NCBI GenBank assembly: GCA_965248605.1
Contig: CBDFJV010000006.1
Coordinates: 9,513-73,512 of the forward strand
From: Dehalococcoidia bacterium
GTDB lineage: Bacteria > Chloroflexota > Dehalococcoidia > Lucifugimonadales > CAUZJF01
DNA length: 64,000 bases
Reading direction: 5' to 3'
Below the pieces are notes generated by a model. It saw only the letters and a list, made by a program, of their open reading frames with translations. It searched no databases and had not been told where the DNA came from. Below are positions 13,219 through 62,736 of this stretch, piece after piece (position 1 is the stretch's first letter; every line of letters starts with the position of its first letter). The translations under genes were made by a program, and so were the position numbers.

Positions 13219-13304
13219 GGTGTGCCTTTCGCCCTATGGGCCGATAGCAGGCAGCGAGAACAGATATTTTGTCCTGTACGTTCTCGACTCCAGGCTAGTT
13301 CTTG

Positions 13305-13329
13305 GATTCCTCGCTACGCTCGGAATGAC
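13305..13329. repeat. GTCATTCCGAG..CGAGGAATC hairpin repeat (extra copy beyond the GIY-YIG unit)
   Basis: GATTCCTCGCTACGCTCGGAATGAC is the reverse complement of the hairpin found upstream of both GIY-YIG genes. Confidence 0.6.
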
Positions 13330-13408
13330 GGTGCGCATCGAATTACCTCCTGGCCCTCGACACCTCTGCGACTGTCACCTAGCACCTCGTTGGCGTTTCC
13401 CCCACACT

Positions 13409-13789
13409 GTCACCCTGAGGCCGCTTCGGGCGAAGGGTCTAAGGACTCGCTCTGCGGACCGTACCAATCCATCGCCAGATCCTTCCATCGAGGGTTCAGC
13501 GACTCGATGAGCGCTTCTTTTTTCGAGCGGCGCCAGCCTTTGAGCTGCTTTTCTCGCGCGATCGCAGAGGTGATATCGCTGGTGGCCTCATAGTACGCTA
13601 ACCATGTGATGTTGTACCGCTTTGTGAACCCGTCTACGAGCTTCTGTTTGTGCTCGTAGACCCGGCGCATGAGATCGCTGGTTACACCGGTGTAGAGGGT
13701 CCTCTTGCCATTGGTGAGGATGTAGACATAGTACTGACCCATCGGCCTTCCGGCTGGTCCTTAGATTCCTCGTCGGACTCGGAATGACA
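13409..13789 (-). mobile_element. Hairpin-bounded GIY-YIG unit (intact copy)
   Basis: On the coding strand the order is GTCATTCCGAG-N-CGAGGAATCTAAGGAC (13789..13758), then the GIY-YIG ORF, then GTCCTTAGACCCTTCG-N-CTCAGGGTGAC (13446..13409). The same architecture occurs at 29481..29857. Confidence 0.6.
13410..13742 (-). CDS. GIY-YIG nuclease family protein (small URI-domain type)
   Basis: YYVYILTNGKRTLYTGVTSDLMRRVYEHK...REKQLKGW gives the GIY-YIG motifs. The last codons and the stop lie inside the 3' hairpin repeat. Confidence 0.85.
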   Translation of the reverse strand: MGQYYVYILTNGKRTLYTGVTSDLMRRVYEHKQKLVDGFTKRYNITWLAYYEATSDITSAIAREKQLKGWRRSKKEALIESLNPRWKDLAMDWYGPQSESLDPSPEAASG

Positions 13790-14006: not shown

Positions 14007-14165
14007 TTATCCCGAAACACCTGCCAGCGTCGCCGCCTCGTCGCCGAAGAAGTGGAGAGCGCTGTTGATCGGCGCTCCCGCCGCCTGGCCTAGCCCGCAT
14101 AGCGACGCGAGAGACACCACTTCTGAAAGATAACGTAGCTCGTCCAGATCGCCGGGCCGAACCGC
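14007..14165 (-). pseudogene. Duplicated 3' end of fdsB (displaced fragment)
   Basis: It encodes ..GDLDELRYLSEVVSLASLCGLGQAAGAPINSALHFFGDEAATLAGVSG*. The 119-bp core 14037..14155 differs at 3 positions from 14705..14823 in the intact gene, while the last ~30 nt before the stop are diverged. Confidence 0.85.
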
Positions 14166-14200
14166 CATACGACCTGGAGCGCTCCGGGGGGCATCGACCT

Positions 14201-14461
14201 TCACGTATACACCTCACTCCGGTGCCCGACTGCGTAGACCGTTACGCTCTTATTCGAATCGTCGATTTGGTAGAGTACGCGATACGCTCCCACTCTGACC
14301 CGATAAGAATTCGTGCTTCCAACGAGCTTGCGGCACTGGCTCGGCCTTGGCTCTGAGGCAAGGGACTGAATCAACCTGAGTACCCTTGTTCCGAGTCGCG
14401 GAGATAGCTTCTCCAGCTCTCGTGTCGCTGTTCGCCTTATTTCGACTCGGTAGTCTGCCAC
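14201..14461 (-). CDS. Type II toxin, RelE/ParE family
   Basis: An 86-aa protein with ..YRVRVGAYRVLYQIDDSNKSVTVYAVGHRSEVY, the typical RelE/ParE C-terminal pattern. It overlaps the upstream antitoxin ORF. Confidence 0.8.
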   Translation of the reverse strand: MADYRVEIRRTATRELEKLSPRLGTRVLRLIQSLASEPRPSQCRKLVGSTNSYRVRVGAYRVLYQIDDSNKSVTVYAVGHRSEVYT

Positions 14462-14640
14462 CTATCTTCCAGCCTCTTCCTTACGATTTCAAACGGCTCG
14501 GCTGGCTCATCTTTCCGCTCCGCCATCACGGCAAGGTCCTCCAGATCTTCCAGGAGCTCCCGATATTCTCCCAAAGGGATTACTACCGAAGTCTTCCTCC
14601 CATTCTCATCGACCAGAAAATGCTTCTTCGCTCTAGCCAT
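14437..14640 (-). CDS. Type II antitoxin (Phd/YefM- or RelB-like)
   Basis: A small acidic protein (MARAKKHFLVDENGRKTSVVIPLGEYRELLEDLEDL..). The ATG at 14640 is preceded by GAGGAG. It overlaps the toxin start. Confidence 0.7.
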   Translation of the reverse strand: MARAKKHFLVDENGRKTSVVIPLGEYRELLEDLEDLAVMAERKDEPAEPFEIVRKRLEDRWQTTESK

Positions 14641-14677
14641 ACGATTCTCCTCAGATTTGAACATCCAGGCTCATGTA

Positions 14678-16291
14678 TTATGACACGCCTGCCCGCGCCG
14701 CCATCTCGTCGCCGTAGAAGTGGAGAGCGCTGTTGATCGGCGCTCCCGCCGCCTGGCCTAGTCCGCATAGCGACGCGAGAGACACCACTTCTGAAAGATA
14801 ACGTAGCTCGTCCAGGTCGCCGGCCGAGCCGTTTCCTGAAATCAGCCGGTCGAGGGTGTCGACGATGCGAGGCGTACCTTCGCGGCAGGGTGTGCACTTG
14901 CCGCACGACTCCGCCGCGTTGTAGGCGGCCAGCCGCCGGACTACGTCGAGCGCGTTCGTCCTTTCGTCGAGCGCGATCACGCCGCCGGCTCCGAGCATAA
15001 CGCCGGACTCGTGGAGCTGGCCGGGAGCGATCGGCGTGTCGAGCATGGACACCGGGAACACGCCGCTGGACGGTCCGCCGACAGCGACTCCGGTGAGAGT
15101 GTGTCCTGTCCGCGGCCCTCCTCCGATGGCGGTGATGATCTCGCGGAGCGTCGTGCCCATCGGCACCTCGACGACGCCGGGCCTCGGCACCGACCCGCTG
15201 AGGCTGACGATCTTGGTCCCCGAGGCGTCCTCCGCCCCGATCTCGGCGAAGGCGGCCGCACCGTTGGTCATTATGAACGGCACGCTTGCTAGAGTCTCGG
15301 CGTTGTTGATCACCGTCGGTTTCGCCCACAGGCCGGCCTCGGTCGGAAAGGGAGGCCGAAGCCGCGGTTCCCGACGGTACCCTTCCATCGTATTGAGCAT
15401 CGTCGTCTCTTCGCCGCAGACGTAGCCACCGGCTCCTCGGAGAATCTCGACGCTCAAGTTGTACCCCGAGCCCAGAATATCGTCGCCCAGCAGGCCAAGC
15501 TCCGCTGCCTGCTCGACGGCCTTCCGCACCCGCTCGGCCGAGAGGTTCGCCTCGGCGTTGATGTAGACGTAGGCCTGTTCGACGCCCGACGCGTAGGCCG
15601 CAACGATCGCCCCTTCCACGACCCGATGGGGCACGCCCTCCATCAAGTGGCGGTCCTTGAAGACTCCGGGTTCGCCCTCCTCGGAGTTGACTACGAGATA
15701 ACGGGGTTCGACTTCAACCTTCCGAGCCCCCTCCCACTTCAGGGCGGCGGGGAAGTACGCGCCCCCTCGGCCTCGGAGTCCGGAGGCCTTGACCTCCTCG
15801 ATGACCTCTCCAGGCGACATCGACAACGCCCTTGCGAGACCCGCGTATCCGCCACTGAGGATGTAGTCATCGGCCTCGGTAGCCTCCAGCTCGCCACACC
15901 GGTCGAGAGCGACACGATGTTGCTTCTCGAGAAACGCCTCCGACTGACTATCCGCTTTCCTTGCCCCGCCGGCCGCTCCGGAGACGTGTGCTGCAATTGT
16001 GTGAATTGCTTCGGGTGTGACGTTCGCAATCCTCGTATGGGCGCCGTTTTTCCGCGGAATCAGCACCTGCGGAGCCGCGAAGCACGCTCCCTCGCAGCCT
16101 GCTATTACCATATAGGCGTTGTCCGGTATCGAACTCGATAGGGAGTCAGCCACGTCCTGTGCGCCGACGGCCTGCGAACAGTGTCCGACCTGGACTACGA
16201 CGCGGGCCTTACCAGCGCGTTCAGAATCGTAACGCCTCTGCGCCGCCTCCTTCAATTCGTTTAGTGCGTTGACGGGACTGGTAGCCATCAC
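14678..16291 (-). CDS. fdsB: Formate dehydrogenase beta subunit (NuoF-like NAD/FMN/4Fe-4S)
   Basis: RGRGGAYFP (FMN site), the GEPG.FKDR motif and the C-terminal cluster ESCGKCTPCREG are present. It overlaps fdsG by 4 nt. Confidence 0.9.
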   Translation of the reverse strand: MMATSPVNALNELKEAAQRRYDSERAGKARVVVQVGHCSQAVGAQDVADSLSSSIPDNAYMVIAGCEGACFAAPQVLIPRKNGAHTRIANVTPEAIHTIAAHVSGAAGGARKADSQSEAFLEKQHRVALDRCGELEATEADDYILSGGYAGLARALSMSPGEVIEEVKASGLRGRGGAYFPAALKWEGARKVEVEPRYLVVNSEEGEPGVFKDRHLMEGVPHRVVEGAIVAAYASGVEQAYVYINAEANLSAERVRKAVEQAAELGLLGDDILGSGYNLSVEILRGAGGYVCGEETTMLNTMEGYRREPRLRPPFPTEAGLWAKPTVINNAETLASVPFIMTNGAAAFAEIGAEDASGTKIVSLSGSVPRPGVVEVPMGTTLREIITAIGGGPRTGHTLTGVAVGGPSSGVFPVSMLDTPIAPGQLHESGVMLGAGGVIALDERTNALDVVRRLAAYNAAESCGKCTPCREGTPRIVDTLDRLISGNGSAGDLDELRYLSEVVSLASLCGLGQAAGAPINSALHFYGDEMAARAGVS

Positions 16292-23149: not shown

Positions 23150-23280
23150 CTAGTAGACCGAAATCTTTGAAATGAGGGGTAGCCGAGATTGGCGTGCTAC
23201 GACGACAGGGCGGGTTTCAAACCCGCCCCTACCAAGCCGTAACCTCAGAACCCTTCAATACTAGGATGTTGGACCACTAG
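23150..23280 (+). repeat. 131-bp MITE-like repeat, copy 2 (first of a tandem pair)
   Basis: Full-length copy. Its right-hand CTAG (23277..23280) is shared with copy 3. Confidence 0.9.
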
Positions 23281-23407
23281 TAGACCGAAATTTTTGAAAT
23301 GAGGGGTAGCCGAGATTGGCGTGCTACGACGACAGGGCGGGTTTCAAACCCGCCCCTACCAAGCCGTAACCTCAGAACCCTTCAATACTAGGATGTTGGA
23401 CCACTAG
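23277..23407 (+). repeat. 131-bp MITE-like repeat, copy 3 (second of a tandem pair)
   Basis: Full-length copy with one visible substitution (GAAATTTTTG versus GAAATCTTTG). It overlaps the 3' end of the ORF at 23372..24373. Confidence 0.9.
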
Positions 23408-38374: not shown

Positions 38375-39583
38375 GTGGAAGAAGCCAAGATATCGGTGTA
38401 CGGCGCGCCGTGGTGCCCAGACTGCAAACAGGCCAAGCAGTTCCTCAATGAGCAGCACGTCGCGTTCAACTGGATTGACGTCGACGAGGACCCGAAAGGA
38501 CTCGAATACGTCAAACAGACCAACGACGGTAAGCAAATCATCCCGACCATCGTGTTCGAGGACGGCTCGATTCTCGTCGAGCCAACCAACGCGGAGTTAG
38601 CGCGAAAACTAGGTATTAGCGCCCGGGCGAAGCGTCACTTCTACGACCTCGTCGTGGTGGGAGCCGGCCCGACCGGCCTGACGGCGGCAATATATGCGGC
38701 GAGAGAAGGGCTCGAAACCCTGATCGTCGAACGCAGCGGGATCGGAGGCCAGGCGGGTGTCACCGAGCGGATAGACAACTACCCAGGCTTTCCGGAAGGT
38801 GTCGGGGGCGCCGAGCTTGCGAAACTCATACAGCGTCAGGCCGACCGGTTCGGTGTAGAGATTCTACCGGCACAGTCGGTGACCAGGATCAAGACCGAAA
38901 TGCCCCAACCCTCGATCGAGACGGAGACCGGTGACGAGTACTGCACACGGGCGGTGTTGCTAGCCACGGGGAGCCGCTATCGTAAGCTCAATGTCCCTGG
39001 GGAGGACGACCTCATCGGCGCCGGGATACATTTCTGTGCGACCTGCGACGGGCCCTTTTACAAAGGCCAGGAGCTCGTGGTCGTCGGAGGCGGCAACAGC
39101 GGCATCGAAGAGGGGCTCTTCCTGACCAAGTTCGCTTCCAAGGTTACGGTGCTCGAATACGGAGACCGGCTCAAGGCAAGCAAGATCCTCCAGGAGAAGG
39201 CCGCTGGCCATCCAAAGATGGAGATACGGCTCCGACACACGGTCGAAGAGTTCAGAGGGAACGGCCGCTTGACCTCGATCGTCGTCAAAGACCTCGAATC
39301 AGGCGACGTCGAAGAGCTAAGACCGGGCGCAGCTTTCATATTCATAGGACAGCAGCCGAACACCGATTTCGTCCGCGGTGCTGTTGACCTCGATAAGTGG
39401 GGGTTCATCTCGACCGAGACAAACCTGGAGACCAGCCTTCCGGGGGTCTTCGCCGCCGGGGACGTCCGAGCAGGGAGCACCAAACAGGTCTGCAGCGCGG
39501 TCGGCGAAGGCGCCACGGTGGCGTTGATGATCAGGCAATTCCTCGAAAAGACCGAAGGCAGCCGTGGATACAGAGGGGACTAG
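38375..39583 (+). CDS. trxB: Glutaredoxin-like (NrdH/mycoredoxin-type) domain fused to thioredoxin-disulfide reductase
   Basis: The N-terminus reads VYGAPWCPDCKQAK. It is followed by VVVGAGPTGLTAA (FAD), the redox-active CATCDG and GGGNSG (NADPH). Confidence 0.85.
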   Translation: MEEAKISVYGAPWCPDCKQAKQFLNEQHVAFNWIDVDEDPKGLEYVKQTNDGKQIIPTIVFEDGSILVEPTNAELARKLGISARAKRHFYDLVVVGAGPTGLTAAIYAAREGLETLIVERSGIGGQAGVTERIDNYPGFPEGVGGAELAKLIQRQADRFGVEILPAQSVTRIKTEMPQPSIETETGDEYCTRAVLLATGSRYRKLNVPGEDDLIGAGIHFCATCDGPFYKGQELVVVGGGNSGIEEGLFLTKFASKVTVLEYGDRLKASKILQEKAAGHPKMEIRLRHTVEEFRGNGRLTSIVVKDLESGDVEELRPGAAFIFIGQQPNTDFVRGAVDLDKWGFISTETNLETSLPGVFAAGDVRAGSTKQVCSAVGEGATVALMIRQFLEKTEGSRGYRGD

Positions 39584-39630: not shown

Positions 39631-39882
39631 TTGACAGACGCCAAGATCACTATGTACGGCACGACGTGGTGCGGAGACTGCGTACGCGCCAAAGACTTCC
39701 TCGGACGCCACGACGTCCCCTATTCGTGGATCGACATCGACCGAAACCCGGACGCTTCAGATCACGTTCGCGGGCTCAACGCCGGCAAGCGCATCGTGCC
39801 CACCATCGTCTTTGAAGATGGGTCCATCTTGGTCGAGCCGACCAACGCGGAGTTCGCGACCAAACTGGAGATCCGGCCCTAG
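39631..39882 (+). CDS. Stand-alone glutaredoxin-like protein (paralogue of the N-terminal domain of the neighbouring fusion)
   Basis: MYGTTWCGDCVRAK...IVPTIVFEDGSILVEPTNAEF. The stop codon TAG (39880..39882) lies within the terminal CTAG of MITE copy 5. Confidence 0.8.
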   Translation: MTDAKITMYGTTWCGDCVRAKDFLGRHDVPYSWIDIDRNPDASDHVRGLNAGKRIVPTIVFEDGSILVEPTNAEFATKLEIRP

Positions 39883-40009: not shown

Positions 40010-40207
40010 GCCCTGAGAGAATTTTCGTAGCCCGCCGAGTGATCATCGGTCCGTAGGGGCAGGTCTCAGATCTGCCGAACCCATGCGCACGAGACTCATT
40101 GCCGAGGTGTTCCATTGTCGCTGATGCTCTGGTATCTTTTAGCCCGTTCCATGGTCGCCCTACCCGCCTGATTGCGTGAGCCACCTCACCGCGGAGACTG
40201 TCGTCGT

Positions 40208-41449
40208 ATGACTCCAAGGGTCGTCATCACTGGCATTGGCATCGTGAGTCCCGTAGGTCTTACGAGGAACTCTACGTGGGAGGGCCTGCTGGCCGGCAAG
40301 TCCGGCATAGACCACATCAGCGCTTTTGACCCCGAGGGCCTCGAGACGAGGATCGCGGGTGAGGTGAAGGGGTTCGAGCCCACGGACTACGTCGGGAGGA
40401 AAGAGGCCCGGCACATGGACCGCTTCGTGCAGCTCGCCGCGGGCGCTGCTCTCGAAGCGGTCGACCATGCGGACCTGAAGATCAACGGCACCAACGCGGA
40501 GCGCGTTGGAGTCGTCATATCCAGCGGCATCGGCGGCATCATCACGCTCGAAGAGCAGATCGGAGTGCTCGGTACTCGCGGCGCCCGGAGGGTTAACCCC
40601 TTTCTGGTGCCCATGATGCTTCCGGACATGGCTTCAGGCCAGGTGTCGATGCTGCTAGGCGCCAAGGGGCCCAACTTCGCCACAGTGTCAGCCTGCTCGA
40701 GCAGCGGCGACGGGATCGGTCAAGCCTTCGACCTCCTGCGCAACGGGTCGGCCGACATCGTGTTAGCCGGCGGCGCGGAGGCCGCCATCTCACCGATTGG
40801 CGTCGCCGGATTCAACGCCTGCAAGGCGCTGTCCAAGCGCAACGACGAGCCGCAGAAGGCGTCGCGGCCCTTCGATGCCGGACGCGACGGATTCGTGCTC
40901 GGTGAGGGCTCCGCGGTGCTCGTCATGGAAAGCCTCGAGAGCGCCGGGAGCCGGGGCGCCCAACCCATCGCCGAGATGAAGGGCTACGGCGCGACCGCTG
41001 ACGCACATCATGTCACGCAACCGGCGCCTGGCGGCGTTGGAGGCGCCAGGGCAATGAAGATAGCGCTGGAAGGCGCCGGGCTCGGGCCCTCTGACATCGA
41101 CTACATCAACGCTCATGGCACGTCCACGCCACTGAACGACAGGGCCGAGACCGCCGCGATGAAGTCGGTCTTTGGCGACGAGGCGTACAAGATCCCAATC
41201 AGCTCTACCAAATCGATGACGGGACACCTCCTCGGCGCGTGCGGCGCCCTGGAGGCGGCGGCGTCCATAATGTCGATCAGCAACGGCGTTCTGCCACCGA
41301 CGATAAACCTCGACGAGCCCGACCCCGACTGCGACCTCGATTACACCCCTTATCTGCCGAAACGGGGCAGGATCAAGTCCGCGATGAGCAATACCTTCGG
41401 GTTTGGCGGCCACAACAACAGCCTTGTCTTCAGTCAATACGAGGCGTAG
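40208..41449 (+). CDS. fabF: Beta-ketoacyl-ACP synthase II
   Basis: RVVITGIGIVSPVG, the active-site ACSSS, and the HGTST and GFGGHN motifs are present. The ATG is at 40208. Confidence 0.9.
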   Translation: MTPRVVITGIGIVSPVGLTRNSTWEGLLAGKSGIDHISAFDPEGLETRIAGEVKGFEPTDYVGRKEARHMDRFVQLAAGAALEAVDHADLKINGTNAERVGVVISSGIGGIITLEEQIGVLGTRGARRVNPFLVPMMLPDMASGQVSMLLGAKGPNFATVSACSSSGDGIGQAFDLLRNGSADIVLAGGAEAAISPIGVAGFNACKALSKRNDEPQKASRPFDAGRDGFVLGEGSAVLVMESLESAGSRGAQPIAEMKGYGATADAHHVTQPAPGGVGGARAMKIALEGAGLGPSDIDYINAHGTSTPLNDRAETAAMKSVFGDEAYKIPISSTKSMTGHLLGACGALEAAASIMSISNGVLPPTINLDEPDPDCDLDYTPYLPKRGRIKSAMSNTFGFGGHNNSLVFSQYEA

Positions 41450-41642
41450 CAGCGTACCCCTACCGGGGTAAGGGCAGGTCCCAGACCTGCCCGCATCTCG
41501 AGGCAACGTAGTGGAAAGAGCGAGGGTCAACAACAGCCTTGTTTTCAGTGAATACGAGGCGTAGCAGCGTAGGCCTACCGGGTAGGGGCAGGTCTCAGAC
41601 CTGCCCGCTTCTCAAGGCAACACGGTGGAAAGAGCGAGCGTC
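41413..41642 (+). repeat. Tandem duplication (2 x ~115 bp) of the last 12 codons of fabF plus a downstream hairpin element
   Basis: Unit 1 (41413..41527) and unit 2 (41528..~41642) are about nine-tenths identical by eye. Each encodes NNSLVFS(Q/E)YEA* followed by GTA(A/G)GGGCAGGTC-N3-GACCTGCCC. Confidence 0.85.
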
Positions 41643-41657
41643 GACGGAGGCCGCACC

Positions 41658-42020
41658 ATGGGCCGGACCGTGATTACGGCAACCCTCCGGGGCGAGGGCA
41701 GCAGCAAAGAGTACGAGTTCCTGGTAGATACCGGAGCGACTCACGTGGGTCTGCCTGCCGAGGAGATAGCCCAGCTGCGTTTGTCTACGATACCGAAAGG
41801 TCGGACGAGACTTCTAACTGCGACAGGCGTTGTTGAAAGACAGACCTATGCGGCCCAAGGCGAGGTCGCCGGTAGGGGGTTCGTGGCAACGGTCACCGAA
41901 GCTCCCATTCCGATCGTCGGATATGAGCTTCTCGAGAGTCTCAGACTGAAGGTGAACCCGGTCAACAAGACCTTGGAAGACGTACCCGACGAAGATCTGT
42001 CCCCGCCGTACCCGCTTTGA
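41658..42020 (+). CDS. Retropepsin-like aspartic protease family protein
   Basis: FLVDTGATHVGLP contains the D-T-G active-site motif, and the size is ~120 aa. The start is placed at the ATG at 41658; the longest ORF starts inside the tandem repeat. Confidence 0.6.
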   Translation: MGRTVITATLRGEGSSKEYEFLVDTGATHVGLPAEEIAQLRLSTIPKGRTRLLTATGVVERQTYAAQGEVAGRGFVATVTEAPIPIVGYELLESLRLKVNPVNKTLEDVPDEDLSPPYPL

Positions 42021-48957: not shown

Positions 48958-49777
48958 GCTGTCCATCCAACACACCGGCGAGACGTCCACTTCGCGGGCT
49001 GTGTATACGTCTCTGCGAGGCAAATTCATCACTATGTGGCCGCCTGTAGTCGCGATCGCGGCGCTCGTGGTCGCGTGGGAGCTCTGGACGCGCGTGGCCG
49101 ACGTGCCGGAGTACATCGTACCCGCTCCCACGGTCGTGGCCGCGCAGCTGATCGACGAGTTCGGCTACTTTGCCAAACACGGACTGGTGACGCTGGTCGA
49201 AGCTCTTGTAGGGTTCGCGTTGGGGTCCACTGTGGCTATCAGCGCAGCCACGGCCATGGCCCACTCCCGGTTCCTGGACAGAACCCTCTACCCGCTCGCA
49301 GTACTCGTCAAGGTGACACCCATCGTCGCAATCGCCCCCCTGTTCGTCATATGGTTCGGTTTCGGCTCGATGCCGAAGGTGTTCATCGCCGCTCTCATCA
49401 CCTTCTTTCCAGTGATGGTGAACGCCTTGACGGGTTTCCGATCGGTCAATCCCGGCACCTTGGACTTCTTCCGGTCCGTCCACGCCTCCAGAGTCGACAT
49501 CTTCTTGAGGCTGCGAGCACCCAGCTCCTTGCCCTACCTGTTCGCAGCCTTCCGAGTCGCCATACCGTTGTCGGTTATCGGTGCCGTCGTCGGGGAGTGG
49601 TTCACGGGAGACAGGGGCCTCGGGAGTGTCATCATCGTTGCCCACAACAACCTCGACATGCCGACGCTCTTCTCGGCGGTCCTGGTGTTGGCCTTCATCG
49701 GCGTCGCTCTGACGCTGTTGACCGCGTACGTCGAAAGACGGGCCCTCTTCTGGCACGAATCGGTCATTGCCTCATAG
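48902..49777 (+). CDS. ABC transporter permease (NitT/TauT family)
   Basis: Multiple TM segments and a BPD-type EAA-like region. The start is uncertain; the ATG at 49034 is an alternative. Confidence 0.8.
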   Translation: MRRCFRLESQAEIQPSESKLSIQHTGETSTSRAVYTSLRGKFITMWPPVVAIAALVVAWELWTRVADVPEYIVPAPTVVAAQLIDEFGYFAKHGLVTLVEALVGFALGSTVAISAATAMAHSRFLDRTLYPLAVLVKVTPIVAIAPLFVIWFGFGSMPKVFIAALITFFPVMVNALTGFRSVNPGTLDFFRSVHASRVDIFLRLRAPSSLPYLFAAFRVAIPLSVIGAVVGEWFTGDRGLGSVIIVAHNNLDMPTLFSAVLVLAFIGVALTLLTAYVERRALFWHESVIAS

Positions 49778-49949
49778 CATGCCGGTTGGCAGGGCCGGAC
49801 GGGCTCTGTTTACCGTTCGTCTTGAGCCCAGTCAAACGGCTCAGTATGACCCTAGGTCCGTACCATCCGTTCGTCCTGAGCCTGTCGAAGGACAAAGTGG
49901 GCCACGAGACGCTTCTCCCGCAAGGCTGCGTGGACCGTCGCGGCTCTCG

Positions 49950-51002
49950 GTGGTAGCCGCCTCCACGCTGCTCCTGGTGGCGAGCGCTCTGTTCGTGCTC
50001 GCGGCTGTCGGCTGTGAGGTCTCATCCAAGGTCGAAGGACCACCGGCTGACATGCGCACTCCCAAGCCCCTCGACAAGGTCGTATTCATGGCGGGGTTCA
50101 AGCCCCAGGCTAATCTCCCGTTCGTCGCGGCGTACGTCGCTCAGGAGAAGGGGTTCTTCCGGCAACAAGGTCTCAAAGTCGACATCCGGCACGCGTCCAG
50201 CGGCGAGCACCTGAAGTTGCTCGTGGCCGGTGACGTTCACTTCACCACGGCGGCCGCCACGTCGGTGCTGAAACGGCGGGCCGATCCGGAGTTGCCTATC
50301 GTCGCCATCGCGCTCTTCGGCCAACGCGGACAGCAAGGGTATGTGGCGCTAAAGGACTCCGGCATCGAGACCCTGGCCGACTGGGAGGGCAGGACCTTCG
50401 GCTACAAGGTCTCCGTCCCTCCGGACTATCTCGCCATGTTGAACGCGGCGGGAGTCGACCGCGACAAGATCACCGAAGTGCGTGTTGGGTTCGATCCTCG
50501 GGTTTTCACCGACGGGGACGTGGACATACTGGCCGTATTCAAGTCCAACGAGCCCGACACCATTCGGAACCTGGGCTTCGACGTCAACCTCTGGGACCCC
50601 GACGACTTCGGCGTACCTAACCTCGGGCTGACATACATTGCTCTCGAGTCGCTGGTCGACGAGAACCCGGCCATCGTCGAGGGATTCCTGAAAGCGACGC
50701 TAAGGGGGCTCAAGTACACTGTCGACAATCAGGAAGAGGCCGTCGACATCGTCCTGAAATTCGCGCCGGGCGAAAAACGCGAGCACCAGCGCTTCATGCT
50801 GAACGATGAGCTCCGAGACGCCACCAGCGCACTAACAGACGAACACGGCCTCGGGTGGATGACCGACGAACAATGGAGGGCCTTGTACGAGCACCTGATC
50901 GAGTTCGACGCGCTCCCGGTTGAGTTCGACTACCGGACCGCGTTCACCGACCGCTTCCTACGCGCCGCCTACGACAAATCTGGCACGTTGCGCTGGCCTT
51001 AG
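49950..51002 (+). CDS. ABC transporter substrate-binding lipoprotein (NMT1/THI5-like)
   Basis: The lipobox is LAAVGC, followed by an NMT1-like fold (GFKPQANLPFVAAYVAQEKGFF). The start is uncertain: GTG at 49950, whereas the longest ORF from 49767 reads through hairpin repeats. Confidence 0.75.
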   Translation: MVAASTLLLVASALFVLAAVGCEVSSKVEGPPADMRTPKPLDKVVFMAGFKPQANLPFVAAYVAQEKGFFRQQGLKVDIRHASSGEHLKLLVAGDVHFTTAAATSVLKRRADPELPIVAIALFGQRGQQGYVALKDSGIETLADWEGRTFGYKVSVPPDYLAMLNAAGVDRDKITEVRVGFDPRVFTDGDVDILAVFKSNEPDTIRNLGFDVNLWDPDDFGVPNLGLTYIALESLVDENPAIVEGFLKATLRGLKYTVDNQEEAVDIVLKFAPGEKREHQRFMLNDELRDATSALTDEHGLGWMTDEQWRALYEHLIEFDALPVEFDYRTAFTDRFLRAAYDKSGTLRWP

Positions 51003-51020
51003 AATCCGCTCAGTGAGGCG

Positions 51021-51070
51021 CTAATACGTCGCGCGGCCGCCGCTCATGTCGAAGGCCGCGCCGGTGCCGA
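51021..51070 (-). pseudogene. Duplicated 3' end of the SDR gene (displaced fragment)
   Basis: It reads GTGAAFDMSGGRATY*, against STGAVFDISGGRATY* at the end of the intact gene. Comparing 50 bp with 51627..51676 gives 6 mismatches. Confidence 0.7.
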
Positions 51071-51106
51071 TCTCGCGCACGGGGATGCTCCGTTCAAGTT
51101 GTGGAC

Positions 51107-51361
51107 CTAGAGGTACACATCGCGGCGATGGCCGACATGGATGACGGTCACCGTTCTAGCAGTGTCATCAATCTGGTAGATAGTTCGGTATTCTCCCGAA
51201 CGGATACGCCACCCTTCGCGGCCCCTGAGTTTCCTACTTCCCCGGGGTCTCGGGTCTTCTCCTAACCGAATGATGGCTGACTTGAGACGACGATAGCTGC
51301 TCGCCTCCAGGCGAGCCAGTTCCCTCTGGGCACGCCGAAGTATGAAGACATCGTAGTTCAT
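51107..51361 (-). CDS. Type II toxin, RelE/ParE family
   Basis: RIRSGEYRTIYQIDDTARTVTVIHVGHRRDVY. It is clearly related to the toxin at 14201..14461. Confidence 0.8.
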   Translation of the reverse strand: MNYDVFILRRAQRELARLEASSYRRLKSAIIRLGEDPRPRGSRKLRGREGWRIRSGEYRTIYQIDDTARTVTVIHVGHRRDVYL

Positions 51362-51564
51362 CCACGCTCTTGCTCAATCTCACGTACGGCCTGATCAAAA
51401 GGGATCACTTCGTCGCTAGAGGACGTCGCGGCGTCGTAAGCCCGGATGGATTCCAGCTCCTCAAGTTGTTCCATCAGCTTCTCGTACTCATCGATCTCTA
51501 GAATGACCCCAACCCGAGTACCTTTTTCGTCGACGACGTATTGTTGATGGACTGCTGTCGCCAT
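51358..51564 (-). CDS. Type II antitoxin (Phd/YefM- or RelB-like)
   Basis: MATAVHQQYVVDEKGTRVGVILEIDEYEKLMEQLEELE. The ATG at 51564 follows AGGAGG. It overlaps the toxin start by 4 nt. Confidence 0.7.
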   Translation of the reverse strand: MATAVHQQYVVDEKGTRVGVILEIDEYEKLMEQLEELESIRAYDAATSSSDEVIPFDQAVREIEQERG

Positions 51565-51626
51565 GGTTCCTCCTGCTTCTGGCTCCAAGCTACGTTGTCA
51601 TTTTAGCCCGATTGTGGCCCCTCGCG

Positions 51627-52388
51627 CTAATACGTCGCTCGGCCGCCACTGATGTCGAATACCGCGCCGGTGCTGAATGAGCACTCGGCGGACGCCAGCC
51701 ACGCGACCAGCGCGGCTATCTCTTCGATCTCGCCGGTCCGGCCGACAGGAATCCGCTCGACCATGTACTGCACCTGCTCGGGCGTCAGTTGGTCGAGGAT
51801 TCGGGTCTGGACCACAGCAGGGGTAACGCAGTTGACCCTAACGCCGGTCTTGGCCAACTCCTTTCCGACCGACTTGGTCAACCCGATCACCGCCGCCTTC
51901 GTCGCCGAATAGGGCACCATCCTCGGGTTGCCCTCTTTCCCTGCGATCGACGCGATGTTTACTATCCGGCCGTAGTCCCGCTCGACCATGTGCGGGATAA
52001 CGTGGTGACAGAACGAGTAAACACCGCGCAGGTTCGTACGGTACACCCGGTCCATCTCCTCAACGGGCAACTCCCAGATGTTGGCCGTATCTCCGGCGAT
52101 GCCGGCGTTATTAACGAGGATGTCGATCCGTCCCCAGGTCTCGATCGCCTGCGCTACCGCTCTTTTCGCCGTCTCATCATCGCCGACGTCCCCGACCTCG
52201 AGGCGCGCGTCGACGCCTTGGGACGCGAGCTCGGCGGCGGCTTGCTCGCCGAGGTCACCGTCGTAGTCAGCGACTACGACCCGGGCACCCTCACGCCCCA
52301 GTCTCGTGGCGACGCCAAGCCCGATGCCGGTGCCAGCTCCGGTTACGATAGCTACTTGGTCCTCGAATCGGCTCACACGACTCTCCAT
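51627..52388 (-). CDS. SDR-family oxidoreductase (FabG-like)
   Basis: TGAGTGIG (cofactor), NNAG and the catalytic YSATK are present. Confidence 0.9.
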   Translation of the reverse strand: MESRVSRFEDQVAIVTGAGTGIGLGVATRLGREGARVVVADYDGDLGEQAAAELASQGVDARLEVGDVGDDETAKRAVAQAIETWGRIDILVNNAGIAGDTANIWELPVEEMDRVYRTNLRGVYSFCHHVIPHMVERDYGRIVNIASIAGKEGNPRMVPYSATKAAVIGLTKSVGKELAKTGVRVNCVTPAVVQTRILDQLTPEQVQYMVERIPVGRTGEIEEIAALVAWLASAECSFSTGAVFDISGGRATY

Positions 52389-52423: not shown

Positions 52424-53620
52424 CTAGTCCTCAGAAAGCGCCCTGCTCGCGGCGGCAACACCCGCTCCCACGCCCACCTCGAAGCTTTGGCTAGGCAGTA
52501 TCTCCTCCAGTGCGGAGAGCAGTGCCAGCACGTCTTCGGATTTGCTCGAGTCGCCCATAAGACCGATGCGCCACACTCGCCCGGCGAACTCGCCGAGGCC
52601 TCGCCCGATCTCGATGTGGTGCTCTCGCAAAAGTTTCTGTCGCACAGAGGCGTCGTCGACCCCGTCCGGGATCCACACGGGGGTGATCTGCGCGAGACGA
52701 TAGTCTTCCGGCGCGACCAGGTCGAGCCCCAGCGCCTCCAGGCCGGCGCGAAGGGCAGCCGCGTTCCTCTCGTGCCGCTCGTATCTTGCCTCCAACCCTT
52801 CTTCGAGGATCATTCTGAGCCCTTCTCGAAGGCCCAGCAGCGCGCTGACCGGCGCTGTGTGGTGGTATACGTGGTCGAAGCCCCAGTAGTTGGAGATGAG
52901 TCCAAGGTCGAGGTACCACGAAGAGGGCTTGTGCTCTCTCGTCTTCACAATGTCGTGGCCCCTGGGGCTGAGAGCTGCGGGAGATAGGCCTGGAGGGCAC
53001 CCCAGACACTTCTGAGTGGCCGAGTAGCAGTAGTCGATACCCAACCGGTCTACGGTTACCTCGGAGCCACCCAGAGACGTGACCGCGTCCACCATGAACA
53101 ACGCTCCATGCTCTTCCGCAAGCGTGGACAGCCCCTCCAGCGGCTGCAGAATCCCGGTCGACGTTTCGGCGTGGACGGCTGCCACCAATTTGACCTTGGC
53201 GTGTTTCTTCAGCTCAGCTTCGAGCATCTCGGCCGGAAACGGCTGGCCCCAGTCGCTTCGCAGAGCGATGACGTCTGCTCCGACTCGACCGGCCATGTCG
53301 ACCATGCGCTCGCCGAAGAAGCCGCATACACAGATCACCACGGTGTCGTCGGGTTCGAGCAAGCTGCTCAACCCCGCCTCCATGCCCGCGGAACCCGTCC
53401 CGGACAGCGCCATCGTGAGGCTCTCTTCGGTCTGAAAGGGCGCCTTGAGGAGTTGCGAAATCTCGTCCATGATCAACAGGAATTCCGGGTCGAGGTAGCC
53501 GATCATCGGCGCCATCATGGCCTGGAGCACACGAGGGTTGGCGCTGCTAGGCCCAGGGCCCAGCAGAATCCGAGGCGGGACTACTGGCATCAGAGATTCC
53601 GGCGCGGTGACCTGGGTCAT
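52424..53620 (-). CDS. Class V aminotransferase (alanine-glyoxylate / serine-pyruvate type)
   Basis: LLGPGPS is near the N-terminus, the PLP lysine context is SATQKCL, and the length is ~400 aa. Confidence 0.8.
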   Translation of the reverse strand: MTQVTAPESLMPVVPPRILLGPGPSSANPRVLQAMMAPMIGYLDPEFLLIMDEISQLLKAPFQTEESLTMALSGTGSAGMEAGLSSLLEPDDTVVICVCGFFGERMVDMAGRVGADVIALRSDWGQPFPAEMLEAELKKHAKVKLVAAVHAETSTGILQPLEGLSTLAEEHGALFMVDAVTSLGGSEVTVDRLGIDYCYSATQKCLGCPPGLSPAALSPRGHDIVKTREHKPSSWYLDLGLISNYWGFDHVYHHTAPVSALLGLREGLRMILEEGLEARYERHERNAAALRAGLEALGLDLVAPEDYRLAQITPVWIPDGVDDASVRQKLLREHHIEIGRGLGEFAGRVWRIGLMGDSSKSEDVLALLSALEEILPSQSFEVGVGAGVAAASRALSED

Positions 53621-61227: not shown

Positions 61228-61358
61228 CTAGTAGACCGAAATCTTTGAAATGAGGGGTAGCCGAGATTGGCGTGCTACGACGACAGGGCGGGTTTCAAAC
61301 CCGCCCCTACCAAGCCGTAACCTCAGAACCCTTCAATACTAGGATGTTGGACCACTAG
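61228..61358 (+). repeat. 131-bp MITE-like repeat, copy 6
   Basis: Full-length copy. Confidence 0.9.
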
Positions 61359-61375: not shown

Positions 61376-62549
61376 CTACGGGCCCTCTTCGTCGTAGTGC
61401 CTCAGAACGCGGATCGGCTGCTCGACGTAGGGCCTGTCGAGAAGAGCCTGCTCGTCGAGATTCAGACCAAGCCCTGGACCCTCAGGAAGATCGATGTAGC
61501 CGTTCTCGACCTGGAACGGGTTGACCGATATCTCGTTGCCCGTCTCCGCGAAGTTCACGAAGTATTCGGTGATCAGGAAGTTCGGCATGCACGCCGCCGC
61601 CTGGATCGTCGCTGCCAGCGCGATGGTCGTGCTGTTGTAATTGTGGGGCGCGACGGATACGTAGTAGGGCTCGGCCATGGCCGCGATTTCCTTCAACTCC
61701 AAAATTCCGCCGCAGTTGCAGACGTCGGGGTTTATGATGTCCGCCGCCCGTCGCTCGAAGACCTCGCGGAACGCTGCCTTCGTGTACAGCGTCTCTCCGG
61801 TTACCACAGGGATACGAGTTCGCTCCCGGACCTCGGCGAGCGCAGGTACGTTCTCGGCGGGCACCGGCTCCTCGTACCAGAACGGCTTGAACTCCTCCAG
61901 GTCTTTGGCAAAGCGTATGGCGTTCATTGGCGAAAGCCGCCGGTGGCCTTCTATCAGCAGATCGACGTCGGGTCCGACCGCGTCCCTAACGGCCCTCACG
62001 ACGTCGATGGCCGACTGCTCGACCTCTTTGCCCACGAACGAGCGCCACGGCCTCAGAAACGGGTCGAACTTCATCGCCGTGAACCCCTGCGCAACCGTCT
62101 CGGCCGCCTTGTCCGCAAACTCCTCCGGCTTGGACGAGCCCGCATACCAGCCGTTGGCGTATACGCGGATGCGGCCTCGGCACGGTCCGCCCAGCAGCTT
62201 GTAGACGGGGACCCCCAGCTTTTTGCCCACGATGTCCCACAACGCCTGTTCGATGCCGCTCAGTGCGCAATACAGGTCCATCGAGCCGCGGCGACTGCTG
62301 AAGTCGTCGTAGACGATCCAGCTGAAGTGCTTGATAGCGAACGGGTCACGCCCAACCAGGTATCGCTCCAGCTCACGAACGTGCTCCTCTATGGCCCGGT
62401 CACGGTCGAGCTGGGTGTACGCCTCGCCCCAGCCGTGGATTCCCTCATCGGTCTCCACCTTCAAGAACAGCCAGTTCTTGGCCCCGACGACGCCCGCACG
62501 TTTGGCCGACGGCGTCACCAGAAAGGGTCTTCACGCCCGTTACCTTCAT
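61376..62549 (-). pseudogene. Enolase-superfamily dehydratase (mandelate racemase/muconate lactonizing enzyme family, galactonate-dehydratase-like) with a frameshift after codon 8
   Basis: NWLFLKVETDEGIHGWGEA and later metal-ligand regions are present. The ATG at 62549 follows GGAGAA and encodes MKVTGVKT. It falls out of frame at the run at 62525..62527 and rejoins as FLVTPSAK.. if one base is removed. The intact-frame ORF alone is 61376..62518 (GTG). Confidence 0.75.
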
Positions 62550-62605: not shown

Positions 62606-62736
62606 CTAGTAGACCGAAATCTTTGAAATGAGGGGTAGCCGAGATTGGCGTGCTACGACGACAGGGCGGGTTTCAAACCCGCCCCTACCAAGCCGTAACC
62701 TCAGAACCCTTCAATACTAGGATGTTGGACCACTAG
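62606..62736 (+). repeat. 131-bp MITE-like repeat, copy 7
   Basis: Full-length copy in the same orientation as copy 6. Confidence 0.9.

Follow-up and report, generated by a model that had tools for sequence, protein, structure and literature searches.

A minimal RelB/RelE-type toxin-antitoxin operon inserted at the end of an SDR gene with a 53-nt direct target duplication in a Dehalococcoidia bacterium

The locus described here, cassette 2, is well supported as a minimal RelB/RelE-type toxin-antitoxin (TA) operon that has been inserted at the end of a housekeeping gene for a short-chain dehydrogenase/reductase (SDR), duplicating 53 nt of the target as a direct repeat. It lies in a 64,000-nt stretch of DNA from a Dehalococcoidia bacterium (the window), which also carries a related TA pair, cassette 1. 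The kind of event is known, since it matches the insertion with long target duplication described until now mainly for restriction-modification (RM) gene complexes (Nobusato et al. 2000, Gene 259:99; Furuta, Abe and Kobayashi 2010, NAR 38:2428, PMC2853133); in this respect the initial annotation needs correction. As cargo of such events, TA modules are barely documented. We give a probability of roughly 0.6 to the explanation that a selfish TA operon entered by insertion-type homologous recombination of the host, leaving a long target duplication, and that addiction guards it against loss by recombination between the repeats.

Layout of cassette 2 and its repeat pair

On the minus strand, the SDR gene is followed by the antitoxin gene, the toxin gene and a second copy of the SDR gene end (Table 1). 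This order, the coordinates, the repeat with its six mismatches and the two peptides claimed in the initial annotation all held on recheck. The SDR reading frame is intact on one side of the insert, with the C-terminus SFSTGAVFDISGGRATY, the most frequent form among homologues (68/120), and the displaced copy lies on the other side. A class-V aminotransferase gene precedes the SDR gene, an arrangement found also in relatives (the order is kept in loci L002/L003). The convergent NMT1/THI5-like gene, which has permease and ATPase genes upstream of it, marks the native downstream flank, and its stop codon is 18 nt from that of the remnant. With RecJ, Lgt, histidine kinases, ABC transporter genes, the aminotransferase and an S58 peptidase as neighbours, cassette 2 stands alone amid housekeeping genes.

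Table 1. Features of the two cassettes and their flanks (positions in the window)
Feature	Positions	Strand	Description
Class-V aminotransferase gene	52424..53620		upstream of the SDR gene
SDR gene (target of cassette 2)	51627..52388	-	intact, 253 aa; Pfam adh_short_C2, E=1e-61
Cassette 2 repeat copy 1 (in gene)	51624..51676	-	last 47 nt of the SDR ORF, stop TAG and 3 nt beyond
Left spacer of insert	51565..51623	-	59 nt; -10-like TAAAAT and antitoxin RBS AGGAGG
Antitoxin, RelB-like	51358..51564	-	68 aa; PF18506, E=7e-8, 32.6 bits (cut-off 27); ATG after AGGAGG
Toxin, RelE/ParE superfamily	51107..51361	-	84 aa; PF05016 ParE_toxin, E=1.1e-9, 39.1 bits (cut-off 23)
Right spacer of insert	51071..51106	-	36 nt
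Cassette 2 repeat copy 2 (remnant)	51018..51070	-	displaced SDR 3' end; reads GTGAAFDMSGGRATY followed by a stop
NMT1/THI5-like ABC substrate-binding protein gene	49767..51002	+	convergent; Pfam NMT1, E=1e-40
NuoF-like subunit gene (target of cassette 1)	14678..16291	-	537 aa; Pfam Complex1_51K, SLBB, NADH_4Fe-4S
Cassette 1 repeat copy 1	14682..14840	-	last ~160 nt of the NuoF-like gene
Cassette 1 TA pair	14201..14664	-	Pfam
Cassette 1 antitoxin, RelB-like	14437..14640 or ..14664	-	Pfam
Cassette 1 toxin, RelE/StbE	14201..14461	-	NCBIfam TIGR02385 RelE_StbE, 29.2 bits (cut-off 27.9)
Cassette 1 repeat copy 2 (remnant)	14007..14172	-	in frame, one extra codon, own stop
Cassette 1 remnant ORF	14007..14204		65 aa; GTG start overlaps the toxin stop

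The insert between the repeats is 553 nt long and holds the two TA genes only, beginning with their expression signals and ending shortly after the toxin stop; the non-TA DNA amounts to just 59 nt plus 36 nt. The gap between the SDR and antitoxin genes is 62 nt, the first 3 nt of which (GCG) are part of the repeat. Upstream of the antitoxin there is no match to the sigma-70 consensus; the TAAAAT box lies 33 nt before the start codon, and TATAAT-like boxes occur at the equivalent position in other cassettes of the family. A promoter and terminator scan found neither a consensus promoter nor a terminator flanking either cassette of the window, and the predicted RNA fold of the right spacer together with the remnant was nothing unusual (z=+1.07). 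The right spacer neither resembles the sequence upstream of repeat copy 1 nor shares a motif with other cassettes; as a diverged continuation of the duplicated gene end it was rejected (z <=2.3). There was no integrase or transposase in the insert or within ~8 kb of it and no pseudogene debris, and neither a tRNA nor any other Rfam family that might serve as an integration target was found close by. Exact-sequence look-ups of the SDR and the toxin matched no record.

The antitoxin has a weak PhdYeFM match besides that to PF18506, and its stop codon overlaps the toxin start by 4 nt (ATGA). When the toxin was compared with solved structures, the eight best of nine matches were RelE-type toxins, including 2KHE (the best, E=5.6e-10), E. 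coli RelE (4V7K/4FXE, E=1.3e-5), Rv2866 (3G5O) and aRelE (1WMI); no NCBIfam model scored above threshold. The toxin is thus predicted to be a RelE-type mRNA interferase and not a DNA-cutting enzyme, and the presence of a RelE/ParE toxin with a coupled upstream antitoxin identifies the pair, as far as homology goes, as a type II RelB/RelE module. The GC content of the TA genes is 0.51-0.56, and their GC3 (antitoxin 0.57, toxin 0.61) against 0.73-0.81 for the host points to a foreign origin. A scan of viral contigs found no relatives of the toxin family; plasmid-borne relatives exist, with identities of <=57%.

A repeat search gave the two copies as 53 nt long, 47/53 identical (89%) with six mismatches, and 606 nt apart from start to start. 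The match has a blastn E value of 1.5e-15 (local search space), and a degenerate 36-nt pattern allowing <=3 mismatches finds two sites in the 64 kb, namely the two copies, and none in 100 shuffles. The match is not due to chance. The in-gene copy departs from orthologue DNA at three third positions, where synonymous changes have produced rare codons ending in A or T (GTA, AGT, CGA); the remnant departs from the orthologue consensus by three nonsynonymous changes. With 16 codons and 7 differences, this repeat is too short for discriminating between models. The longest identical blocks within it are 12-15 nt, which is short for a RecA-dependent crossover and in that respect counts against our preferred explanation. 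The nearest empty-site relatives are the SDR orthologues in L001-L004, the proteins of which are 82-83% identical; they have a single gene end and no cassette, and the gene downstream of them is a different one.

Recurrence of the insertion pattern

Cassette 1 has the same layout as cassette 2 with a longer repeat, of 142 nt at 94% identity or, allowing a 1-nt indel, of ~160 nt (17 nt more). Its target, the NuoF-like gene, is a member of an operon of the nuoE-nuoF-fdhA type. As the initial annotation had stated, the two loci are homologous: the toxins are identical at 38/83 positions (46%, E=5e-21) and the antitoxins at 15/37 (41%, N-terminal part). Because the toxins are only 46% identical, the targets differ (SDR versus NuoF-like) and so do the repeat lengths (53 versus ~160 nt), cassette 2 is independent of cassette 1, which was also part of the earlier reading. 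The operon order is seen at the empty-site locus L116, where NuoF is directly followed by FdhA, and in L115 NuoF is directly followed by a sequence matching that beyond the remnant in the window (52/82 identical, versus 27/79 for the left spacer). With both flanks matching L115 and an uninterrupted operon in L116, the repeat of cassette 1 aligns with a single copy at the empty site.

A related genome, L020, carries the same cassette 1 remnant. Between it and the window, cassette 1 is far more alike than its flanks: background pS is 0.16-0.18, that of the TA core is 0.02-0.045, and that of the last 37 NuoF codons is 0.40. The low value for the TA core against the background makes cassette 1 younger than the split of the two genomes, and the high value for the NuoF codons indicates that the adjoining gene end was replaced by diverged alleles. 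The two repeat copies are near-equal in the window and far apart in L020. An independent simple Campbell insertion in each of the two lineages was rejected, since the parts predicted to derive from the donor are not the near-identical ones. The history of cassette 1 is messy and needs extra gene conversion or repeated replacement.

The initial annotation had argued from the two cassettes for a mechanism rather than chance, and this survived a control survey. Direct repeats flanked 12 of 93 related toxin loci but only 1 of 173 control positions (Fisher P=1.9e-5), the controls being pseudo-cassette positions in the same loci; once later loci were added, the count was 13/99. In the window, a sliding control returned, besides both cassettes, a paralogue pair, a dispersed 131-nt repeat and one 24-nt match. 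The insertion pattern recurs for this toxin family in unrelated bacteria. No repeat was detectable at 86% of the surveyed loci, so these either arose by other insertion routes or have had their remnants eroded. Several survey hits that seem to be cassettes between copies of generic hairpin repeats (L007, L037/L038, L113 and perhaps L049) were excluded from the clean target duplications.

Repeat lengths across the survey range from 23 to 209 nt, at unrelated targets. These include the ends of leuB (L048), of a ferredoxin-like gene (L061/62; 23 nt, perfect) and of the NuoF-like gene, and in L044 a gene end plus half a terminator hairpin. The duplicated target need not be a gene 3' end, a further correction to the initial annotation: in L121 it is the lexA promoter with the first 14 nt of the gene (92 nt, 100% identical), and in L013 a pseudogene on the opposite strand. 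The distance between the repeats is 495-656 nt at a further seven well-defined loci, which have different targets. The right end of the insert falls -2 to 152 nt past the toxin stop, and 321 nt past it in L049, which has an extra ORF. The repeat boundaries are sharp, and no homology, even degenerate, was found to continue past them.

A search of the cassette ends for conserved motifs or recombination sites, as the initial annotation had proposed, came out negative. The ends share nothing between loci, and no conserved end motif or att-like core is common to related cassettes on the left or the right (median z ~0). Terminal inverted repeats are absent from both window cassettes (z=1.4 for cassette 1 and -1.4 for cassette 2). 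As for a donor, among the 110 loci of two toxin scans no SDR-type gene end lies beside a related toxin except in L029, where an unrelated SDR end is near a toxin fragment, and the remnant sequence of cassette 2 is in none of 122 loci; nor do the assemblies show a circular form.

Divergence of the repeat copies and the origin of the insertion

The copies of the long repeat pairs (L020, L048) differ with a pS of 0.45-0.52 and a pN/pS of 0.20-0.25. Neutral decay of one copy is rejected for both (L020, P=0.004; L048, P=0.014; combined ~6e-4). Since the copies of the longer pairs differ mostly at synonymous sites, they look like two functional alleles and not like one gene end and its decayed copy. 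The L048 pair spans 60 codons at 20% divergence without frame-breaking indels, and in L044 the copies end in GAG TGA and GAA TAG, both of which encode E-stop.

Campbell-type (single crossover, ends-in) integration of non-replicating DNA and homology-facilitated illegitimate recombination in naturally transformable bacteria both predict repeats that consist of the incoming homology and show donor-recipient divergence, with no element-encoded enzymes. These are laboratory mechanisms, and for natural TA cassettes and the Chloroflexota/Dehalococcoidia-like lineage here we infer their action. Given that the cassettes have no recombinase of their own and no specific ends, the work would be done by host DNA metabolism. 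A fragment or circle bearing the TA operon and a homologous piece of gene end would recombine into the resident gene end, either by a single crossover of the Campbell type or by an ends-in event with gap repair. Such recombination would necessarily yield direct repeats of variable length, the copies of which differ by the divergence of donor and recipient. From a filled locus, the cassette could spread among related lineages by ordinary homologous recombination in or near the repeats. The repeat that first arises at a new target might be created by template switching or by a staggered break that is filled in. If the two repeats recombine with each other, the cassette would be excised, and cassette-free cells would presumably be poisoned by the longer-lived toxin (post-segregational killing). 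Because cells that lose the cassette are presumably poisoned, repeat-flanked inserts would persist preferentially when their cargo is addictive; on this reasoning, addiction probably shields the cassette from repeat-repeat loss.

Duplication in situ, by a staggered break or by a template switch that leaves the gene end and returns 53 nt upstream, would give copies that are identical at first, the in-gene copy then being held by selection while the remnant drifts. The perfect repeats of L121 (92 nt) and L061/62 (23 nt), which a true target-site duplication would lead one to expect equally and which to that extent weigh against host recombination, agree with this, as do the sharp boundaries; template switching also predicts variable repeat lengths, and the window itself contains a plain 115-nt tandem duplication of a fabF-like gene end with nothing inserted. 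The changes in cassette 2, synonymous in the gene and nonsynonymous in the remnant, likewise fit duplication in situ followed by drift, again at the expense of host recombination. Their rates, however, are the wrong way round, with 3 changes at ~12 synonymous sites in the gene copy versus 3/51 nt in the supposedly neutral remnant. The long pairs speak against it as well: they reject neutral decay of one copy, their pS is far above the 0.16 background between the two genomes sharing cassette 1, and the L048 pair has kept its frame. We regard an origin in situ as possible but rather unlikely. Alternatively, an integrase island could have entered the SDR 3' end through an attP that carried a replacement gene end, and deletions then removed all but the TA genes and left attL and attR. 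Integrases commonly target and rebuild gene 3' ends, TA modules stabilise islands, the repeat copies resemble two alleles of a functional gene end, and for Photorhabdus there is a proposed stepwise model of 'streamlining to TA-only islets' (PMC13617665). Such a relic is nevertheless improbable here, given the lack of a recombinase or pseudogene debris, the mere 59 + 36 nt of non-TA DNA between the repeats, the equal compaction at the seven other well-defined loci with different targets, the absence of an att-like core common to related cassettes, repeats that range from 23 to 209 nt, and targets among which are a promoter and an opposite-strand pseudogene.

It is more doubtful still that the downstream copy is no by-product of insertion and was retained for a function such as encoding a peptide, terminating transcription or regulating the TA operon. 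The remnant ORF of cassette 1, with its GTG overlapping the toxin stop, is conserved in two genomes (window and L020) with a pN/pS of 0.16, a value that translation of this ORF would also explain. Against such a role, the remnant of cassette 2 has 16 codons and lies within no ORF of >=40 aa, neither a terminator nor an unusual fold was found, and the duplicated targets differ in kind from locus to locus and show no sequence relationship. An accidental resemblance, or a paralogous SDR fragment unconnected to the cassette, is close to refuted and has almost no weight. SDR C-termini are conserved, SDR genes are numerous, and the downstream flank is non-syntenic with relatives; yet the 47/53 identity extends over the stop codon and 3 non-coding nt with the low blastn E value given above, the window has two copies only and the shuffles none, the control rate is 1/173, and the same geometry is seen at cassette 1 and other loci.

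An extension of the host-recombination explanation can be proposed only tentatively, and we consider it unlikely as it stands. RelE-type TA operons would be mobile elements without a recombinase, the duplicated piece of host gene serving as a homology arm and as their sole mobility function. A circle of the cassette and one arm, set free when the repeats recombine, would re-enter any genome that has the homologous gene by a single crossover, regenerating the repeats, and the toxin would punish the donor for the loss. If true, the 'virus-like life cycle' that Kobayashi proposed for repeat-flanked RM systems would apply also to toxins without DNA-cutting activity, and the extension would explain both the coding-like, deeply diverged repeat copies and the cassette-adjoining gene end as a hotspot of recombination between lineages.

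Relation to known systems and significance

The RM inserts with long target duplication and the cassettes here have in common an addiction-type gene pair, the lack of a mobility gene, and flanking direct repeats of variable length above 30 bp in the former (46-423 bp, versus 23-209 nt here) that are a single copy in the insert-free genome and in some cases overlap the 3' end of a neighbouring gene (PMC2853133). Set against the criteria of Furuta et al. 2010, cassette 2 has repeats >30 bp (53 nt) and an insert <20 kb without a mobility gene; its cargo is a TA pair and not a restriction enzyme with a methyltransferase. The cargo thus differs, being a DNA-cleaving RM system in the one case and a RelE-type mRNA-interferase TA pair in the other, and so do the repeats, which were mostly near-identical in the RM reports (PMC2853133), whereas the long pairs here are diverged coding-like alleles. 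Since the toxin is predicted to be an mRNA interferase, the property common with RM systems would be addiction and not DNA breakage; the RelE-type cargo accordingly speaks against double-strand breakage of DNA, the shared property suggested by the RM authors (PMC2853133). The pattern has been recognised for RM systems 'and other DNAs' (Lim et al. 2012).

Two TA loci come closest. In Microcystis aeruginosa PCC 7806, a ParE/RelE-like TA behind the orthocaspase gene MaOC1 is 'fenced' by two identical 152-bp direct repeats (Klemencic et al. 2021, PMC7935541). The toxin superfamily, the order gene-repeat-TA-repeat and the lack of a mobility gene are the same as here; unlike here, the repeat begins 14 bp past the upstream stop codon and is no copy of a gene end. 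The Microcystis report concerns one case and offers neither an insertion model nor a survey (PMC7935541). In Photorhabdus laumondii TT01, ParE/RelE 26 is flanked by a duplicated 24-bp res-like palindrome (Belot et al. 2026, Mol Biol Evol, PMC13617665). It is likewise a solitary TA operon with a flanking sequence that is single in a close TA-less relative, but its repeat is a short palindrome resembling the Tn3 resolution site and implying a site-specific resolvase (PMC13617665), whereas the repeats here are longer, form no palindrome, consist of ordinary target sequence and differ from locus to locus.

Among mobile elements, the integrase att sites of prophages, ICEs and genomic islands resemble the present loci in having repeats made of the target 3' end, in rebuilding the gene with the incoming copy, and in that the two copies may be alleles that have diverged. 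Integrase elements are set apart by their recombinase and conserved att core, and cassette 2 by an insert of only 553 nt, with repeat lengths and targets that vary among related cassettes. With no recombinase gene within ~8 kb and no conserved att core, cassette 2 does not have the features of a site-specific integrative element. Nor does it have those of a transposon, IS or MITE, in view of the absence of terminal inverted repeats and of duplications that are variable (23-209 nt) and not fixed. No inverted repeat or structured element indicative of an integron gene cassette was found at the cassette ends, and the cassette is solitary and not in an array.

The entry and movement of chromosomal TA modules are an acknowledged gap; the mechanisms of TA integration have been called 'poorly characterized', with Tn3-linked examples only (PMC13617665). 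The present analysis places a common TA family in an event class known from RM systems. It also provides a cheap signature that needs no annotation, a small operon with a copy of its neighbour's end on either side, by which TA insertions in metagenome-assembled genomes can be dated and traced. Should the homology arms indeed be imported, TA cassettes would locally drive recombination between diverged lineages where core genes such as leuB and nuoF end.

Anatomy and limits of cassette 2

Cassette 2, the TA operon behind the SDR gene, has the gene order, coordinates and spacers given in the initial annotation, as borne out by the sequence and by Pfam matches (see the table). The toxin gene start and the antitoxin stop overlap as ATGA. 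The reported duplicate of the SDR 3' end was also confirmed; the repeat holds the last 47 coding nucleotides of the SDR gene, its stop codon and 3 nt past the stop. Since the two copies matched with a blastn E of 1.5e-15, and a degenerate 36-nt pattern (up to three mismatches) hit only the two repeat sites in the window and nothing in 100 shuffles, the match is not due to chance. The stop codons of the remnant, the displaced second copy, and of the convergent gene are 18 nt apart, as is typical for native gene ends.

Features of the two window cassettes and flanking repeats at comparison loci
Locus	Feature	Position or length	Strand	Details
Cassette 2	SDR gene, intact	51627..52388	minus	adh_short_C2 E=1e-61
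Cassette 2	SDR-antitoxin spacer	62 nt	minus	3' of SDR gene
Cassette 2	RelB-like antitoxin gene, 68 aa	51358..51564	minus	PF18506, 32.6 bits, above cut-off
Cassette 2	RelE/ParE-superfamily toxin gene, 84 aa	51107..51361	minus	PF05016 E=1e-9
Cassette 2	Right spacer, toxin gene to remnant	36 nt	minus	
Cassette 2	Repeat copies 1 and 2	51624-51676 and 51018-51070	minus	53 nt, 47/53 identical
Cassette 2	ABC transporter binding-protein gene	49767..51002		converges on remnant
Cassette 1	NuoF-like gene	14678..16291		
Cassette 1	Toxin gene	14201..14461		antitoxin gene between toxin and NuoF-like gene
Cassette 1	Remnant	14007..14172		
L020	Orthologue of cassette 1			related Dehalococcoidia MAG
L048	Repeat	209 nt		last 209 nt of leuB, 80% identical
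L061/L062	Repeat	23 nt		end of ferredoxin-like gene, 100% identical
L044	Repeat	53 nt		gene end and half its terminator hairpin
L121	Repeat	92 nt		lexA promoter and first 14 nt of lexA, 100% identical
L013	Repeat	103 nt		aminoacyl-tRNA-synthetase-like pseudogene, opposite strand
L071	Repeat	31 nt		

Eight of the nine solved-structure matches of the cassette 2 toxin were RelE-type mRNA interferases (including 2KHE, ribosome-bound E. coli RelE, Rv2866 and archaeal RelE), and the toxin of cassette 1, the TA operon behind the NuoF-like gene, passed the NCBIfam RelE/StbE model. These matches indicate that the toxin most likely acts as a ribosome-dependent mRNA endonuclease rather than by poisoning gyrase or cutting DNA. 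The TA genes are foreign by composition, since their GC3 (0.57-0.61) is below that of ten host genes (0.73-0.81). The neighbours of cassette 2 are all housekeeping genes (RecJ, Lgt, sensor kinases, ABC transporter, class-V aminotransferase and S58 peptidase); no integrase or transposase was found within about 8 kb of it, and no tRNA or other Rfam family nearby. The host is a Chloroflexota (Dehalococcoidia-like) bacterium, to go by the names of the SDR and toxin homologues and by a related MAG.

A search for conserved end motifs had been proposed, and across loci it was negative: no common motif was found in the left ends (the 60 nt that follow repeat 1) or the right ends (toxin stop to repeat 2), with a median z of about 0, and neither window cassette has terminal inverted repeats. 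The repeat boundaries are abrupt, with no significant residual similarity in the 40 nt outside. The left end begins a few tens of nucleotides 5' of a -10-like box, and the right end falls between -2 and 152 nt past the toxin stop (321 nt in locus L049, with an extra ORF). The inserted unit thus appears to be little more than a functional operon, without a recombination site of its own.

Recurrence and empty sites

Cassette 1 shares this arrangement, its repeat being about 160 nt long. The toxins of the two cassettes are 46% identical and the antitoxins 41% over the N-terminal 37 residues; they are homologous but diverged, as the initial annotation held, and they stem from two events rather than one segmental copy. 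Its further contention, that a mechanism rather than chance is at work, was supported by a survey of 110 loci with relatives of both window toxins, fetched from species-representative genomes and metagenomes. When the 900 nt upstream of the toxin were compared with the 500 nt downstream (same-strand blastn, E<1e-4), 12 of 93 testable loci had a flanking repeat match, versus 1 of 173 pseudo-cassettes set at other positions of these loci (Fisher P=1.9e-5); once six later loci were added, the toxin loci stood at 13/99. Four further matches (L007, L037/38, L113 and perhaps L049) were not counted, as they look flanked by generic hairpin repeats; with the well-defined cases of the table, this leaves seven or more independent events, spread over several phyla. 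The repeats range from 23 to 209 nt, and the target is often, not always, a gene 3' end. In L061/L062, the toxin stop codon contains the start of the second repeat copy. The cassette of L121 may be under lexA promoter control, because an upstream copy of the lexA promoter region now precedes its TA operon (L121 2625-3499), while lexA retains its own copy.

The closest SDR orthologues (L001-L004; 82-83% protein identity) kept the upstream aminotransferase gene and had no TA behind SDR. Because their downstream genes differ from those of the window, they represent an empty site of cassette 2 in a loose sense only. For cassette 1, the empty-site evidence is clean. In L116, an FdhA-like gene follows the NuoF-like gene after 153 nt with no cassette between; in L115, the DNA directly after the NuoF stop matched the window sequence 3' of the remnant at 52/82 positions, and the left spacer of cassette 1 at only 27/79. 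Compared with the empty site, the cassette 1 locus has therefore gained a left and a right spacer, the TA genes between them and a single repeat unit.

Other arrangements were also seen. In Dehalococcoidia MAG GCA_030651175.1 (L119 2372-3258), a relative of the cassette 2 toxin lies within a 2-oxoacid dehydrogenase operon (E1alpha, E1beta, TA, E2) with no flanking repeat; the antitoxin starts 6 nt past the E1beta stop and, at 197 aa, includes an additional C-terminal domain of some 120 aa. L117 has an islet of small cassettes (DUF2442, RelB/ParE, HicB/HicA). Close homologues of the cassette 2 toxin (P0242-P0304) are mostly on contigs <2 kb; assemblies tend to break near these cassettes, as expected of multi-copy or strain-variable DNA. 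Apart from the two cassettes, a sliding control of the window hit a glutaredoxin-like domain with a paralogue, a dispersed repeat of 131 nt and a single 24-nt match. The first is a 90-nt direct repeat (38375-38610 and 39631-39882; 77% identical, copies 1.25 kb apart), ruled out as an insertion footprint: the domain is N-terminal in a thioredoxin-reductase fusion, with a free-standing paralogue downstream. A 127-131-nt repeat with an internal hairpin, GGGCGGGTTTCAAACCCGCCC, has four copies of 99-100% identity (23150-23407, 61228-61358, 62606-62736), one pair in tandem and the other pair on either side of an enolase-superfamily gene (61376..62518); it resembles a miniature repeat element that was active until recently.

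Origin of the repeats

Collectively, the promoter-to-stop RelBE operon, the long, variable direct target duplication, its recurrence, the empty sites, the lack of an element-encoded recombinase or specific ends, the foreign composition, the coding-like divergence of the long pairs and a cassette shared more recently than its flanks lead us to infer, with moderate confidence, that the cassettes insert and spread by homologous recombination of the host. A DNA molecule with the operon joined to a homologous gene-end piece would recombine with the resident gene end in an insertion-type configuration (single crossover or ends-in), which would necessarily give direct repeats; repeat length would reflect the arm carried, and repeat divergence the donor-recipient distance. 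Filled loci would later swap cassettes through ordinary recombination.

The main rival is duplication in place, via a staggered break or template switch. If one copy then decayed, about 60% of the differences should be nonsynonymous; the repeat copies differed by 19 synonymous and 10 nonsynonymous changes in L020 (pS 0.52, pN/pS 0.20) and by 21 and 15 in L048 (pS 0.45, pN/pS 0.25), giving P of about 6e-4 against decay for the two combined. The L044 copies read GAG TGA and GAA TAG, E-stop in both. From these differences, both copies look like functional-gene ends from diverged lineages. In favour of duplication in place are the perfect repeats of L121 and L061 and a plain 115-nt tandem duplication in the window (41413-41645) of the last 37 nt of a fabF-like KAS II gene (40172..41449) plus 78 nt containing the hairpin GGGCAGGTCCCAGACCTGCCC. 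No insert separates its copies, which end NNSLVFSQYEA and NNSLVFSEYEA before the stop, so gene-end duplication occurs without a cassette; the first repeat at a new target may well arise through duplication in place. (A retropepsin-like small ORF with a DTGA motif, 41659..42020, lies 3' of this duplication.) A decayed integrase-borne island is unlikely, as seven other well-defined loci are equally compact (495-656 nt between repeats) and free of debris.

A second signal came from comparing the window with L020: pS was 0.16-0.18 for the genome background (NuoF-like and NuoE-like genes), 0.02-0.045 in the TA genes, 0.40 in the last 37 NuoF-like codons and 0.38 in the remnants; cassette 1 postdates the divergence of the two genomes, and diverged alleles have replaced the adjoining NuoF-like gene end. 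When two outgroups were included, site patterns placed the four alleles about equally distant, except that the window's two copies are near-identical over the first 102 nt. This pattern of cassette 1 requires repeated recombination and gene conversion; neither a single ancestral insertion with vertical descent nor one independent Campbell event per lineage (window, L020) fits. The short cassette 2 repeat has only 7 differences. Set against the DNA of orthologues, the in-gene copy has three synonymous third-position G/C-to-A/T changes, giving the rare codons GTA, AGT and CGA, and the remnant three nonsynonymous ones; this fits an in-gene tail imported with the cassette from a lower-GC donor, and equally in-place duplication and drift.

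The cassette 1 remnant is a 65-aa ORF (window 14007-14204, L020 3252-3449) whose GTG start overlaps the toxin TGA; it is kept in both genomes with 14 of 20 nucleotide differences synonymous (pN/pS 0.16), which is unexpected of dead DNA. Nearby, a 110-aa GIY-YIG gene (13410..13742; PF01541 E=2e-13) is flanked by a pair of 42-nt direct repeats (13288-13788; 76% identical, GTCATTCCGAG...GAGGAATC). L020 has an intact hicB-hicA pair in its place, and the window retains just the first ~150 nt of hicB, its ATG now CTG. Small selfish genes have thus landed more than once between the NuoF-like and FdhA-like genes.

Relation to known insertions

Insertion with long target duplication was defined for the RM systems of H. 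pylori and has since been described from many bacteria, with variable repeats of >30 bp, on the order of 100 bp, some overlapping the neighbour's 3' end, and no mobility gene (PMC2853133). Cassette 2 agrees in repeat length and mobility-gene absence; the empty site is clean for cassette 1 and loose for cassette 2. Lim et al. 2012 state that such duplications are known from RM systems 'and other DNAs', and a 2013 review of RM and TA systems ascribes them to RM systems only. In the literature searched, just two single cases of repeat-flanked TA modules were found: a Microcystis ParE/RelE-like pair with identical 152-bp repeats starting 14 bp past the upstream stop (PMC7935541), and a ParE/RelE pair of Photorhabdus between two copies of a 24-bp res-like palindrome, in a 2026 study that calls TA integration mechanisms 'poorly characterised' (PMC13617665). 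The cassette pattern is insertion with long target duplication, carrying TA instead of RM cargo.

Furuta et al. proposed DNA double-strand breakage as the shared property behind such insertions (PMC2853133). A RelE-type cargo would argue for addiction instead as the property held in common with RM systems. Repeats of 50-200 nt flanking a 550-nt insert should favour its deletion; were the insert an addiction module, segregants that had lost it would be poisoned, and repeat-flanked inserts may be seen around TA modules because they survive.
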